From: Parachlamydiales bacterium
GTDB taxonomy: Bacteria; Chlamydiota; Chlamydiia; Chlamydiales; JAJFMK01
Reading direction: 5' to 3'
DNA: 64,000 nucleotides
NCBI GenBank assembly: GCA_963765145.1
Contig: CAVXVG010000029.1
Coordinates: 192,001 to 256,000 of the forward strand
The position numbers and the translations under genes are program-made. This document shows, piece after piece, positions 19,222 to 23,483 of the stretch. Below the pieces are notes generated by a model that searched no databases, was not told the DNA's origin, and saw only the letters and a program-made list of their open reading frames with translations. Positions within the stretch are counted from its first letter, which is position 1; every line of letters starts with the position of its first letter.

Positions 19222-19315
19222 CGCGAAGCGTTTGGAGTGCTAAACTCCTGTTTAGCTTTCACTTTTCAATGAGAGTGAAAGCTAAACAGGAGTTTAGCAC
19301 TCCAAACGCTTCGCG
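19222..19315. repeat. REPIN-like element, family A
   Basis: Near-perfect 94-bp palindrome cgcgaagcgtttggag...ctccaaacgcttcgcg. Confidence 0.9.
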
Positions 19316-19320
19316 AGGTG

Positions 19321-19397
19321 TTAGTAGCTGTTCTCTTCTAGGCGGACTTTGCCACGGAAAATCCAGTATATGCTGATGGTGTAACGGCGACAAGAGG
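19321..19397 (-). pseudogene. cydB 3'-end fragment, copy 1
   Basis: Matches 22455-22532 (...YTISIYWIFRGKVRLEENSY*) and shares the flank cgcgaggtg with intact cydB. Confidence 0.85.
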
Positions 19398-19423
19398 GAG
19401 TATCCACACCTTCCAACACGGGT

Positions 19424-19456
19424 GGGGGGGGGGGGGGGGGGGGGGGGGGGGGGGGG
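19424..19456. repeat. Poly-G tract (33 nt)
   Basis: Directly visible; may be a sequencing or assembly artefact. Confidence 0.8.
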
Positions 19457-19469
19457 CTGCAAAACATGC

Positions 19470-19498
19470 TTGAATTTAGTATCACTCAATGATACTAT
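19470..19498 (+). promoter_or_regulatory. hicAB promoter with overlapping operator
   Basis: TTGAAT-17 bp-TACTAT. The inverted repeat tagtatca-N5-tgatacta (19477-19497) overlaps the spacer and -10 box. Confidence 0.7.
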
Positions 19499-19504
19499 TA
19501 TCTT

Positions 19505-19759
19505 ATGAGGAAGAAACATGCTGATACCCTGAAAGCTATCTTTCACACTCCCGTGCTCTCAAGTGTAAAATGGAGTGATATCGAATCGCTTTTCATTAGT
19601 TTAGGTGGCAGTGTTTCCGAGGGAAGGGGGTCACGGGTGAAAATCCTTCTTAACGATTGCGTTGCAGTTTTTCATAGACCTCACCCGCAGAAAGAAACTG
19701 ATAAAGGTGCGCTTGTTTCAGTTCGACGTTTTTTAGAAGAAGCTGGAGTAAAACCATGA
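19505..19759 (+). CDS. hicA: HicA-family toxin
   Basis: W.DIE.L...LGG...EGRGSRV and FHRPHP motifs; 4-bp overlap with hicB. Confidence 0.9.
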   Translation: MRKKHADTLKAIFHTPVLSSVKWSDIESLFISLGGSVSEGRGSRVKILLNDCVAVFHRPHPQKETDKGALVSVRRFLEEAGVKP

Positions 19760-20112
19760 AATATAAGGGATATCACGGACAAGTTAATTATGACGAAGAA
19801 GCAAAGCTTTTTCACGGAGAAGTTGTCGGATTACGAGATGTCATCACATTTCAAGGGACTTCTGTTGATGAATTGGAGCAAGCTTTCAAAGATTCTATCG
19901 ATGAATATGTAGACTTTTGTAAAGAACTAGGGCGGACACCCGAAAAACCCTTCTCCGGCAAATTAGTGCTACGTCTGCCTCCTGAAATCCACGAAAGAGC
20001 TGCCTACCAAGCTAAAAATAGCGGTCAAAGCTTGAACAGTTGGATAAAACAAGGGATTCAACACATGCTAAACCCCTCATCGCCCTCTCCTGGCGCAAGA
20101 ACACGGCTTTAG
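19756..20112 (+). CDS. hicB: HicB-family antitoxin
   Basis: MKYKGY...DVITFQG.SVDEL..AF..SID.Y...PEKPFSGK..LRLPPE.H...SLN.W. Confidence 0.9.
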   Translation: MKYKGYHGQVNYDEEAKLFHGEVVGLRDVITFQGTSVDELEQAFKDSIDEYVDFCKELGRTPEKPFSGKLVLRLPPEIHERAAYQAKNSGQSLNSWIKQGIQHMLNPSSPSPGARTRL

Positions 20113-20129
20113 AAGAAGTTTCCTGTTAG

Positions 20130-20288: not shown

Positions 20289-20692
20289 TTAATAACTGTT
20301 TTCTTCGAGCCTGACTTTGCCACGGAAAATCCAGTATATGCTGATGGTGTAACAGGCGACAAGAGGAATGCCGATCAGGGCAATGAGAAGAAGGATTTGC
20401 AAGGTTTTAAGTGAAGATGAGCTATTGAAAATGGTAAGGCTGTTGAGATGGGGCGGTACGATGTCTCTAACGACGTTAGGATAGGTACCAAGGCCATAAA
20501 GGGCCATCAGGCATATGATGTTAATGGATGAGGAGATAAAGGCCCTGCCATCCCTCACCTTTTGGATTTCGCGTGGAATATTGGCAATAGCAAACACATT
20601 AAGGGTAGCTACGACAAAGAAAACCACACTGTCTTTTATCGAGGCGACCATGTGTGGGTAATAGATAAGTGTTGCAAAACTTGTCGCAGCGT
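20289..20692 (-). pseudogene. cydB 3'-end fragment, copy 2 (133 codons, in frame)
   Basis: 9 amino-acid differences from intact CydB over 133 aa, with many third-position changes. Confidence 0.9.
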
Positions 20693-20953
20693 CAAGGCCT
20701 GTTGAGGGCAACAGACTCGATCACGAGGAATTGACCGCGTGGGTCGACGCACACCCTTCCGGAGCCATCAGGGATGCAGTGGGCTCCTTAGCCACTGTCG
20801 TCCGTTGCATTGATCAAACAGAATTCGAAACCACACTGAATCAATCGTTGAACCAACTCAACGAGGTCATGCCAGAAGGGTTGAAATACAAAGTCGCTGT
20901 TCAAGAAGGAAAAAGCAACTTATGGGTTGCACAGCTAACCACACAATCAGGCA
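20693..20953 (+). pseudogene. Diverged internal fragment of the PRTase-like gene
   Basis: Homologous to 17859-18116; VAVQEGKSNLWVAQL is conserved. Confidence 0.85.
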
Positions 20954-21009
20954 CCCCGCACTTACCCCTCCCGAGAGTCTCTAATTCGTTAGAAGAAATT
21001 GCCTGTTAG

Positions 21010-21660
21010 TTACTCCCTCGTTTCGAGGGTTACTGCAATGCTCACATCGCCATTTCGAGACATTCCGTAGAGCAAGTCCTTGGCCAGTGGAAGCGCATCA
21101 CCAAGATCCTGACCTAGATGTTCCCTAATCGGAAAAGGTCCTGCTGTTGTTGTAAAATATCCAGAGGGCACCTCTCTGTATCTTCTATCATGACGGACTA
21201 CAAATGTTGCTTCCTCAGCGTACTCTTTTTCTAAAAAAACCTGACAATAGTGCAGATATAAAGGTACATCTAAACAAAGCTCATTATGAGTTGTCCAACG
21301 CACGCTCTTTGTCACCATGTTTAATTCTACACACGCGATGTCATCAATCTTTGATGAATCAATCCCGAAATTGTAGTGAACGACATCCTTAACAATGGAC
21401 GAAGAAAACCGCTCTCTGTTCGCAATAAGAATCGATTCACTCACCATCAATCCATTTCCTGACGTAATACTTGCTTGCGCGCCTGTGGCTAAAACTGTCA
21501 AGATAAACAAACCTGTCACCGCACGAACAGTATTTGGATCTAGTTTGGGGAGAAAATGTCGACACGTATCTTGTATATCCTCCTTGGACGGGAGTAGGCT
21601 ATAAGCGGCTTGGCAATGCTGTAATAAAGGATGTAAAAAGAAAGAATATGATTGCGACAT
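21010..21660 (-). CDS. Hypothetical protein with one hydrophobic/signal-like segment
   Basis: Probable start MSQSYS at 21660. The ORF-track extension reads through a cydB fragment. Confidence 0.6.
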   Translation of the reverse strand: MSQSYSFFLHPLLQHCQAAYSLLPSKEDIQDTCRHFLPKLDPNTVRAVTGLFILTVLATGAQASITSGNGLMVSESILIANRERFSSSIVKDVVHYNFGIDSSKIDDIACVELNMVTKSVRWTTHNELCLDVPLYLHYCQVFLEKEYAEEATFVVRHDRRYREVPSGYFTTTAGPFPIREHLGQDLGDALPLAKDLLYGMSRNGDVSIAVTLETRE

Positions 21661-21683
21661 GATTTTTAATATAGATTTATTGG

Positions 21684-21780
21684 TTAATAACTGTTTTCTT
21701 CGAGCCTGACTTTGCCACGGAAAATCCAGTATATGCTGATGGTGTAAGAGACGACAAGAGGATGCCGATAAGAGCAATGA
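21684..21780 (-). pseudogene. cydB 3'-end fragment, copy 3
   Basis: The first 64 nt are identical to copy 2 (20289 onward); it decays after that. Confidence 0.85.
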
Positions 21781-21868
21781 GGATGTTGGAGTTACTAAAG
21801 GTGGTAAACGGCCTTGTAAATATTCTCCGCCTGTTGTTAGATCATGCATTCAAAACATATGAGGATCT

Positions 21869-22408
21869 ATGAGACCAGTGGCAGTGACTTATCAACCAAG
21901 TCCAACTTTTATTAATCACCAAAATTTTAATCATGAAGTTCCCCTTTTGCTTGAATTTCTGCAGGGAAAAAAGATTTACATCATCCCTAACGGAGCAGGG
22001 AGAAAGTCGGAGCAGGATCCAATTCCCTATGAAGCGGCGAAAAGTTGGGCATACCCTCAACAGCCTAGAAGGCTGGCTATCGATGTAATTGCACGAGCTT
22101 ATTTTGCTATTGATGAGGCTGTAGATCTACCCTCTACAAAAATAAATCACTCGGACGGTTCCTATGCCACTAAGGGCTGGGTGGAAAGAAAGATGGATGG
22201 CGACAGGTATGTGACCAATGGGGAATGCATGGCTGCAATGCTCTTAAAGGGATACAAAGCAGTTTTTAGTGATGTAGAAGAAAACCCTAATTGTTGTTTT
22301 AATGCTTACATAAAGGGGACCGCCGAAAGAGAACTTCAAGAAAAGGCACAGTTGAGGGCACAAAAAAAAGCTGGAAAACTAGCTGCTAGCCGCTTTCATC
22401 CCTACTAA
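21869..22408 (+). CDS. Hypothetical protein (SYxxK...YVTNGxxxAAML motif)
   Basis: 179-aa ATG ORF convergent on cydB. Confidence 0.6.
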   Translation: MRPVAVTYQPSPTFINHQNFNHEVPLLLEFLQGKKIYIIPNGAGRKSEQDPIPYEAAKSWAYPQQPRRLAIDVIARAYFAIDEAVDLPSTKINHSDGSYATKGWVERKMDGDRYVTNGECMAAMLLKGYKAVFSDVEENPNCCFNAYIKGTAERELQEKAQLRAQKKAGKLAASRFHPY

Positions 22409-22454
22409 TAACACTTAAGAAACGCCTTGAGCCTATTAGTCATTCCGCGAGGTG

Positions 22455-23483
22455 TTAGTAGCTGTTCTCCTCTAACCTGACTTTGCCGCGGAAGATCCAA
22501 TAGACGCTGATGGTGTAAGAAACGACTAGCGGAATGCCAATTAGGGCAATGAGAAGGAGGATTTGCAACGTTTTAAGGGAAGAAGAGCTATTGAAGATAG
22601 TGAGACTATTGAGATGGGGCGGTATGATGTCTCTAACTACGTTAGGATAGGTGCCAAGGCCATAAAGGGCCATCAGACAGATGATGTTAAGGGATGAGGA
22701 GATAAAAGCCCGGCCATCCCTCCCCTTTTGAATTTCACGTGGAATATTGGCGATGGCAAATACATTGATGGTGGCTACGACAAAGAAAACCATACTGTCT
22801 TTGATCGAGGCGACCATGTGGGGGTAATAGATGAGTGTAGAAAAACTTGTAGCCGCGTACAGCATGATGAAAGTGATGATCGAGGGATTGACAAACCTTC
22901 TCATTTTTTCATGAAAGTCCCCCTCTGTTTTCATCATCAGGTAAATTGCTCCATGCATCGTAAAAAGGGCCGTTGTAAACAGGCCAACTAATGCAGGATA
23001 AGCATGCATGATATCGCTTAAATGACCCGAAAACTCTCCCTCAGCATCTAAAGGGACACCTCGTATGAGGTTGCCCATCAAAAGACCTAGGATAAAGGTG
23101 ATCAAAAAAGAGGCCAACGCAAATAAGATATCCCATAACCATCTCCACCAAATTTGCGGGGACTTACTTCTTACCTCAATGGAAACAGCTCTGAAAATCA
23201 AAGCGCCAAGAAGGGCCATCGTCGGGATATAAAAGCCTGAACAGAGCGTTGCATAAATAATGGGGAACCCAGCAAAAAGGGCGCCGCCTGCAGTCACAAG
23301 CCAAACTTCATTGCCATCCCATACAGGGCCAATCGAATTGAGCATTAAGCGTCTTTCTCGATCTTCTTTCGATAACAGATGCAAAATGCCCACACCCAAG
23401 TCAAAGCCATCTAGTACGGCGTACCCTGTGATAAGGATCACAAAAACGGAAAACCAGATGAATTGGTAGTCGATTAACTCCAT
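22455..23483 (-). CDS. cydB: Cytochrome bd ubiquinol oxidase subunit II
   Basis: LDGFDLGVG, PVWDGNEVWL and FRGKV motifs. Confidence 0.95.
   Translation of the reverse strand: MELIDYQFIWFSVFVILITGYAVLDGFDLGVGILHLLSKEDRERRLMLNSIGPVWDGNEVWLVTAGGALFAGFPIIYATLCSGFYIPTMALLGALIFRAVSIEVRSKSPQIWWRWLWDILFALASFLITFILGLLMGNLIRGVPLDAEGEFSGHLSDIMHAYPALVGLFTTALFTMHGAIYLMMKTEGDFHEKMRRFVNPSIITFIMLYAATSFSTLIYYPHMVASIKDSMVFFVVATINVFAIANIPREIQKGRDGRAFISSSLNIICLMALYGLGTYPNVVRDIIPPHLNSLTIFNSSSSLKTLQILLLIALIGIPLVVSYTISVYWIFRGKVRLEENSY

Follow-up and report, generated by a model that had tools for sequence, protein, structure and literature searches.

The subject of this study is the interval between cydB and an sthA-like gene in a 64,000-nucleotide (nt) window of DNA from an uncultured chlamydia-like (Parachlamydiales-like) bacterium (G000:C29:192001-256000; genome of 2.68 Mb in 37 contigs, 84.8% complete). 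Intact cydB, the anchor gene, lies on the minus strand at 22455..23483 (Pfam Cyt_bd_oxida_II, E 1e-96). Downstream of it, blastn found three further cydB 3′ ends, all on the strand of cydB: copy 3 (21684..21781; 98 nt with a 1-nt deletion), copy 2 (20289..20692; 404 nt, 133 open codons), and copy 1 (19321..19397; 77 nt). In the direction of cydB, the order is intact cydB, an orphan gene of 179 amino acids (aa) (21869..22408, plus strand), copy 3, a 216-aa orphan (21010..21660, minus strand), the tail of a diverged 141-aa gene (20954..21009, plus strand), a diverged fragment of a phosphoribosyltransferase (PRTase)-like gene (20693..20953, plus strand), copy 2, an internally deleted orphan copy (20130..20265, minus strand), the hicA-hicB toxin-antitoxin pair (19505..20112, plus strand), and copy 1. 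Past copy 1 come a 94-nt palindrome resembling repetitive extragenic palindromic (REP) elements (19222..19315), the 141-aa gene (18785..19210, plus strand), the PRTase-like gene (17573..18772, plus strand), and an sthA-like pyridine nucleotide-disulphide oxidoreductase gene (16171..17571, plus strand; Pfam Pyr_redox_2). The last is a conserved gene beyond the variable interval, which we take to be sthA, as did the first-pass annotation of this DNA. That annotation had described three extra cydB ends in one orientation alternating with cargo, and all of these features were recovered by blastn and Pfam searches.

The displaced ends are allele-like and not decayed, their starts vary, the cargo between them is not duplicated, and the structure is additive. 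By blastn, copy 2 is 87.2% and copy 3 is 82% identical to intact cydB. Copy 2 has 133 sense codons with 9 amino-acid differences from intact cydB, the same two counts as in the first-pass annotation; of its 402 nt, 52 differ, 41 of them at codon position 3 (NG86 dS 0.62, dN 0.034, ratio 0.055, Fisher p 6e-20). Within its last 63 nt, 11 differences change one residue, which agrees with the synonymous divergence claimed for this end. Seven of the nine residue changes are known from full-length cydB proteins. A215, V231, L239, I265, and V287 are all present in P0011 and P0012, and four of the five in P0006 (each protein being 98-99% identical to this cydB); A321 and I327 are present in P0005, P0010, and P0031; V254 and C322 occur in none of the seven full-length proteins. 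Because these seven changes are found in full-length cydB proteins, copy 2 is best regarded as a former working allele, and the proposal that the copies diverged while functional is supported. Judged by these protein comparisons, most copy 2 differences are working polymorphisms, and intact cydB alleles are themselves mosaics. A tree of six sequences, built on 225 nt, grouped copy 2 with a cydB fragment from a related locus, L035 (support 83/89), and not with the cydB of its own genome. The annotation had named three outcomes that would refute it (junctions not spanned, dN/dS near 1, grouping only with the genome's own cydB), and on each the result favoured the annotation, with most joints bridged. 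The truncated copy 2 protein recurs on another contig as P0008.

Mosaicism was seen in both full-length and displaced alleles. P0011 and P0012 combine the interior of copy 2 with the tip of the intact gene, a pattern that would be expected if the tip alone was replaced when copy 3 was displaced. Copy 1 was also correctly called a mosaic. Scored at the 11 sites where intact cydB (0) and copy 2 (2) differ, it gives 22222202000 (p 0.006 by an exact rank test), with an interior like that of copy 2 and a tip and flank like those of intact cydB.

L035 is a single locus from a pattern scan of metagenome contigs and is ~95% identical to G000. Its order is a palindrome-like repeat, the A alleles of the 141-aa gene and the PRTase gene, and ~260 nt from the 3′ end of sthA. 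A joint then leads into the final 225 nt of a B-type cydB, after which come the orphan and 141-aa gene B (48% identical). Two alleles of the interval can thus be told apart: allele A holds the palindrome, the 141-aa gene, and the PRTase-like gene, and allele B holds the orphan and the diverged 141-aa gene. The 141-aa gene at 18785..19210 is allele A, with an 87% copy and the 48% diverged allele B in L035. In the window, the 216-aa orphan sits 23 nt behind the B-type cydB stop, the same position as in L035, and the stretch at 20954..21009 (the last ~10 codons of 141-aa gene B plus spacer) is continuous with L035 at 96.8%. This tail was likely joined to the PRTase fragment through a deletion. 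The PRTase fragment itself is allele B (~residues 95-181; 75% nt and 68% aa identity to allele A) and is fused in frame to copy 2 at 20692/20693, as had been reported. The stacking order is B-then-A in the window and A-then-B in L035, and the joints differ, so the proposed comparison of the interval yielded a second, different joint of the same type. PRTase gene A of L035 carries a 464-nt deletion that is also present in X2, and the 72-aa truncated product of L035 is found in a second cluster member, P0007.

The congeners and more distant relatives have a different layout. In G001, G002, and G003, PHP-murB-nusB lie within one gene after cydB. The G001 ortholog of sthA (91%) is ~620 kb away from cydB, which implies that the interval is also a rearrangement breakpoint. 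Extra cydB ends were absent from 60 relatives, apart from G003, whose gene is divided between contigs, and G053, which has a broken paralog, and from 80 named cydB loci. Since relatives lack such ends and the G000 genome has ~20 such loci, a cydB-specific system was rejected. The earlier description of an array anchored on a housekeeping gene therefore stands for cydB as the anchor, but the locus is one of ~20.

The genome-wide record came from a scan in which repeats were masked and 2349 open reading frames (ORFs) were searched for partial copies. Filters covered distance (at least 300 nt), dispersed families, and copies lying within long ORFs; copy 3 was among the 11 rows set aside. Terminal 3′ fragments lay downstream on the same strand in 22 of 24 cases, with 2 elsewhere. 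The 5′ fragments lay upstream in 7 of 10, a weaker side bias (7 versus 3; 11, 8, and 4 before filtering). In all, 29 expected-side fragments were found at 24 anchors, with a pooled pN/pS of 0.17; because some of these anchors are hypothetical ORFs, ~20 is a fair count. By Pfam, the anchors with several ends are htpX (2 ends) and a recQ-like helicase gene (3 ends); clpX, the topoisomerase II A subunit, lptG, a hemN-like gene, an SDR gene, and a PAP2 phosphatase gene also serve as anchors, and clpB and an alr fusion anchor 5′ ends. These gene names are presumed from the Pfam families. Cargo at displaced-end loci includes AbiEii, HipA, YhcG and PD-(D/E)XK nuclease, ankyrin, TPR, NB-ARC/TIR, and kinase genes.

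Fragment lengths vary within loci (77, 98, 225, and 404 nt at cydB, 132/112 at htpX, 71/103/546 at the recQ-like gene). The coding parts of displaced ends are mostly 81-99% identical to their anchors, and this homology breaks off at the stop codon: past it, at most 2 nt are shared in 22 of 26 cases, and only 5 of 26 displaced ends have a flank in common with the anchor. Median identity over 40-nt flanks was 20, versus 18 for random pairs and 24 for G000-G001 orthologs, in a list that contains a few pairs of paralogs. The final 36 nt of a gene recurred downstream in 25 of 1328 genes, compared with 8 for the upstream side, and control words taken from mid-gene gave 5 and 8. The DNA between anchor and displaced end is mostly unique, and 9 of 16 anchors versus 6 of 45 cargo genes were found in 46% of G001. 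In the single contig of G001 (1.2 Mb scanned), we found 6 fragments at 5 anchors with a pN/pS of 0.21. A control, G044 (0.8 Mb), gave 7 fragments, all tandem repeats, with a pN/pS of 0.90. The signature is weaker in the complete congener and was not seen in samples from two other families.

Individual loci give further examples. At L037 (G000:C12:9173-20834), the 10.6 kb of cargo behind htpX holds two displaced htpX ends alongside AbiEii, HipA, ankyrin, SidD_cat/DUF294, and TPR genes. L051 (G000:C9:17214-25673) has cargo between two lptG-alr junction copies (lptG end 81% and alr start 98% identical), a layout that resembles single-crossover integration. L075, in single-contig G001 (C1:381773-388587), is a stacked allele pair: two tandem 1036-aa genes, 94% identical over 3.4 kb with the differences concentrated in one half, enclose the displaced 5′ end of a neighbouring dehydrogenase gene. 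Behind an alpha/beta hydrolase anchor (L046:6375-7938; G000:C29:185374-186940), the cargo includes an MbnB/TglH/ChrH-family enzyme, a DUF2063 partner, and a multicopper oxidase.

Consistent with the first-pass claim that no integrase was involved, no tyrosine or serine recombinase was found in the cydB-sthA interval. The nearest tyrosine recombinase is ~115 kb off, there are 8 tyrosine-recombinase matches in the G000 genome, and no resolvase was found in it. No integron integrase scored above the TIGR02249 cut-off in 4 genomes (G000 being 84.8% complete), and canonical attC box spacing was not seen in the spacers by eye, with no attC model run. Genes for ComEC, DprA, a GspE/PilB-type ATPase, and a TraD-like protein are present in G000. 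Import by transformation (ComEC, DprA, ComM-like) or conjugation (TraD-like) is therefore possible, to judge from gene content, but the presence of ComEC, DprA, and the ATPase would be no proof of competence. DprA (G000:C27:123988-124587) is present in all 3 genomes of the genus and, among 200 genomes of this chlamydial order, exceeds the cut-off in 51; it has been reported absent from Chlamydiaceae (PMC8936141). The comM-like gene (G000:C18:214596-216038) is in four frameshifted pieces in this genome, whereas G001 and G002 have it whole. Those of its breaks that were inspected are losses of one base within short runs, probably through sequencing error. Loss of comM was rejected as a cause, since G001, with intact comM, shows the signature and 19 of 297 G000 orthologs appear frameshifted. 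Because the assembly carries such indel errors, single-base breaks are weak evidence of decay.

We then asked whether the joints are real DNA or whether the stack is a strain-chimeric assembly of a mixed population. The two runs with at least half of the region's words are peat metagenomes, and the peat studies may be one campaign. Logan contigs from four peat runs were compared with window positions 16500-25500, and what follows rests on the 32 of 753 contig pieces listed. The joint between copy 1 and hicA is bridged by X2 record 12, that between copy 2 and the PRTase fragment by X1 record 4 with 1 other letter, and that between copy 3 and the 179-aa orphan by X2 record 14. The run of PRTase fragment, 141-aa tail, and 216-aa orphan is bridged by X1 record 4, X2 record 13, and X3 record 21, and the joint between the 179-aa orphan and cydB by X2 record 15 (0 other letters) and X1 record 5 (18). 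P0022, a 279-aa chimeric ORF on another contig, differs by one residue with the frame kept. No cargo-skipping contig was among the pieces listed, which are short and thus uninformative on this point. A chimera could draw on the peat-run strains being ~5% apart and on the errors of this assembly, which include an inflated G run along with the frameshifted orthologs. Against it, joints are bridged by contigs with 0-2 other letters, P0022 and the truncated ORF P0008 recur on other contigs, the joint overlaps are much shorter than an assembly k-mer, and the signature is also present in single-contig G001 at a pN/pS of 0.21. We consider a chimera extremely unlikely.

With moderate confidence, we favour the reading that the stack arose by repeated additive uptake of relatives' versions of the interval, in a manner like homology-facilitated illegitimate recombination (HFIR). 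Each event would comprise one homologous crossover and one illegitimate joint. Incoming DNA of a relative would pair inside cydB through RecA, so that cydB stays intact and gains a new tip. The far end of the incoming DNA, missing far-side homology, would join within resident cydB. The old cydB tip and its cargo would be pushed downstream, later deletions would trim the stack, and displaced copies would be open to further crossovers. An allelic cydB end in each unit, together with mosaic full-length alleles, fits a homologous anchor, with either flank as the anchored one. Joint overlaps, where the partners are visible, are 5 nt (C26:141578), 7 nt (C26 SDR), 3 nt (clpB), and ~5 nt imperfect (C36), as estimates made with exact donors not known.

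Several observations weigh against this reading. A single linear event should displace a pure resident allele, and copy 1 is not one. Its interior is that of copy 2, down to a base of the Cys322 codon, which was seen in 0 of 7 full-length proteins, and its tip is that of the intact gene. For copy 1, the only copy on which purity could be judged, the mosaic requires a circle, a conversion, or a crossover that entered the displaced copy later. The complete B-type end is in no full-length protein. The overlap at the L035 cydB joint is 2 nt. At 20692/3, comparison with allele A gives 0 nt of exact overlap and a 4-nt match lying 2 nt off; a perfect microhomology there could be judged only against the donor gene itself. 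Thus, the earlier proposal of homologous recombination at one end and a microhomology joint at the other is supported in its additive part, but its microhomology is not demonstrable at this joint and copy 1 exceeds one linear event. The annotation also asked for the junctions to be confirmed. Most are bridged by the peat contigs, but no contig piece listed bridges the palindrome to copy 1, hicB through the deleted orphan to copy 2, or the orphan to copy 3, although P0022 and L035 do cover the last of these. The sharp boundary at the stop codon lacks a direct explanation; a ratchet in which repeated events erode the spacer until selection on the gene halts them could account for it, as might a targeted step. 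The 36-nt test was weak in G001 (11 versus 8). Finally, DprA-bearing G089 had no displaced ends in 400 kb, and DprA was rejected as a predictor of displaced ends, a link left unsupported in this small sample.

Other mechanisms could also stack gene ends. A gene end and its cargo might be closed into a circle by an illegitimate joint and then integrate through one crossover in the gene end, which differs from the favoured reading only in the order of the two steps. Under this model, a displaced copy should combine the donor's interior with the resident's tip, as copy 1 does, and the lptG-alr locus with its cargo between two gene-junction copies would suit it. It also leads one to expect variable fragment lengths, as described for rhs (PMC2935791). 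However, copies 1 and 3 would need a crossover within 77-98 nt at ~87% identity, and no circle-closing joint is among the contig pieces listed, and we find circles rather unlikely. A local tandem duplication through microhomology, after which one copy was exchanged for a relative's allele by an ordinary double crossover and deletions set in, would explain why copies 2 and 3 are identical over their last 63 nt with flank and orphan in common, and why copy 1 has the rare codon of copy 2. Deletions are indeed frequent in stacks (the orphan, the L035 PRTase gene, a topoisomerase copy), and G001 has a tandem pair of 3.4 kb at 94% identity. Yet most displaced ends have neither flank (5 of 26 share it) nor cargo in common with their anchor, the intervening DNA is mostly unique, divergence is synonymous genome-wide, and three steps per locus would be needed at ~20 loci. 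This route seems unlikely.

Site-specific integration was considered in the form of islands that carry the target gene's replacement 3′ end, with attachment (att) sites in coding genes and later erosion, or of integron cassettes. Att sites that restore a gene likewise end homology at the stop codon, as in 22 of 26 cases here, and the genome has 8 tyrosine-recombinase matches and toxin-antitoxin genes among its cargo. But the anchors number more than 20 and are unrelated, diverged alleles of resident neighbours are among the cargo, no recombinase lies in the cydB-sthA interval, and no integron integrase is over the cut-off in 4 genomes. The variable fragment starts already largely refute such islands, which we hold to be very unlikely. 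A bolder idea is an integrase-free cassette system in which any gene 3′ end serves as an attachment site, with cargo fused at the stop codon and stacked behind the matching gene; the cargo would travel with the gene end as circles or as transforming DNA via ComEC, DprA, and ComM. We think this whole claim quite unlikely. If true, such cassettes would be the chief means by which the lineage acquires genes for defence and host interaction, and environmental chlamydiae would be expected to possess natural transformation and a dedicated step that targets gene ends.

Additive uptake as we favour it resembles known systems without matching any of them. HFIR has been described in Acinetobacter, S. 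pneumoniae, and P. stutzeri (summarised in PMC6819513 and PMC2884548), with joints reported at 3-12 nt of microhomology (PMC6819513). The likeness lies in one homologous anchor plus one illegitimate joint, the lack of an integrase, and the addition of foreign genes. Unlike HFIR, known from laboratory transformation, the displaced gene end is kept here and events are stacked, the cydB joints overlap by 0-2 nt, and the host belongs to an uncultured chlamydial lineage whose competence would be putative. Tip displacement in rhs genes has been proposed to proceed through circles (PMC2935791), and HFIR has been proposed for Vibrio type VI secretion system (T6SS) effector-immunity arrays (PMC5361080). 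These arrays share with our locus an intact gene followed by strings of same-strand, variable-length 3′ fragments, each with its own cargo. In rhs/T6SS arrays, the tip is a variable payload whose retention is selected (immunity), whereas the tip in our case is the conserved end of a housekeeping gene, with unrelated cargo, and ~20 genes are anchors. The cydB locus works like an rhs/T6SS displacement array but is not a member, its anchor class being housekeeping genes (cydB, htpX, clpX, lptG), not polymorphic toxins.

In Neisseria minimal mobile elements, a variable interval between core genes is exchanged via flanking homology. Similarly, hotspots of horizontal gene transfer free of mobile genetic elements are flanked by recombining core genes and were explained by double crossover (PMC5635113). 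Both share with the cydB locus a variable interval between core genes, allele exchange by flanking homology, and mosaic flanking genes. Double-crossover replacement leaves no second gene end, whereas here alleles are added and the old end stays. In E. coli icd, e14 and phage 21 restore the gene with a diverged replacement 3′ end and displace the old end, much as seen here. Those islands have an integrase and a fixed crossover core, neither of which was found at cydB (lengths 77, 98, 225, and 404 nt).

The remaining features of the interval add detail. The palindrome lies directly behind copy 1, has 42-nt perfect arms with CGCG at each end, and has 169 look-alike places in the G000 genome, 105 of them at least 80 nt long. 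Part of the flank common to copy 1 and intact cydB, the CGCG, is the terminus of this palindrome. REP palindromes as drivers were rejected for want of enrichment: a masked repeat follows 370 of 1588 genes, at a similar rate after anchors (3 of 23 rows). A second palindrome family is represented by nested inverted repeats (27213-27624 and 27393-27532) 3′ of a PemK/MazF-type toxin-antitoxin pair (26619-27189). Between copy 1 and hicA is a 33-G run (19424..19456, plus strand), one of only 4 homopolymers of at least 15 nt in the genome. It is ~24 letters shorter in X2 record 12 (383 nt across 406 window positions) and is probably inflated in this assembly. The palindrome, the G run, and the 141-aa allele B tail had been missed by the first-pass annotation. 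Elsewhere, a T36-G62-A153 homopolymer block (G000:C19:44893-45143) is an assembly artefact, and a long inverted duplication (G000:C24:440-18418; 97-99.7% identical) is possibly a misassembly or a recent inversion-duplication.

As for the genes, hicA and hicB matched Pfam HicA_toxin and HicB above cut-off. The deleted orphan copy consists of 93-96% repeats of both orphan ends, with 515 nt missing and its joint at an AG repeat. PRTase-like allele A (399 aa) has a weak PRTase-CE match below cut-off (E 4e-5) and 2 relatives only. The 216-aa orphan had no relatives outside its own cluster and no usable Atlas match. The 179-aa orphan, likely the newest cargo, belongs to no Pfam family; its Atlas look-alikes are hypothetical proteins, often phage associated, which is a lead only. 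Relative and Atlas searches of these three genes gave no cargo function. Upstream of cydB is cydA (23484..24860, minus strand; Pfam Cyt_bd_oxida_I).

Taken together, the locus is a real, well-supported fossil of integrase-free additive gene gain. The mechanism itself is known from rhs and T6SS arrays and calls for no new enzyme system; the genome-wide record at housekeeping genes appears to be the new part. No genome-wide account of displaced housekeeping ends was found in literature that mostly leaves subscription journals outside its coverage. HFIR-type additive gain is known from plate assays, has been inferred for toxin arrays, and is rarely visible in natural genomes. Displaced housekeeping ends provide a countable, ordered record of events at ~20 loci, with opposite stacking orders in one population, and a simple displaced-end scan could measure the process across genomes. 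Since the cargo comprises toxin-antitoxin, nuclease, and eukaryote-like genes, this record points to a testable route by which an environmental chlamydia could gain defence and host-interaction genes without mobile elements.

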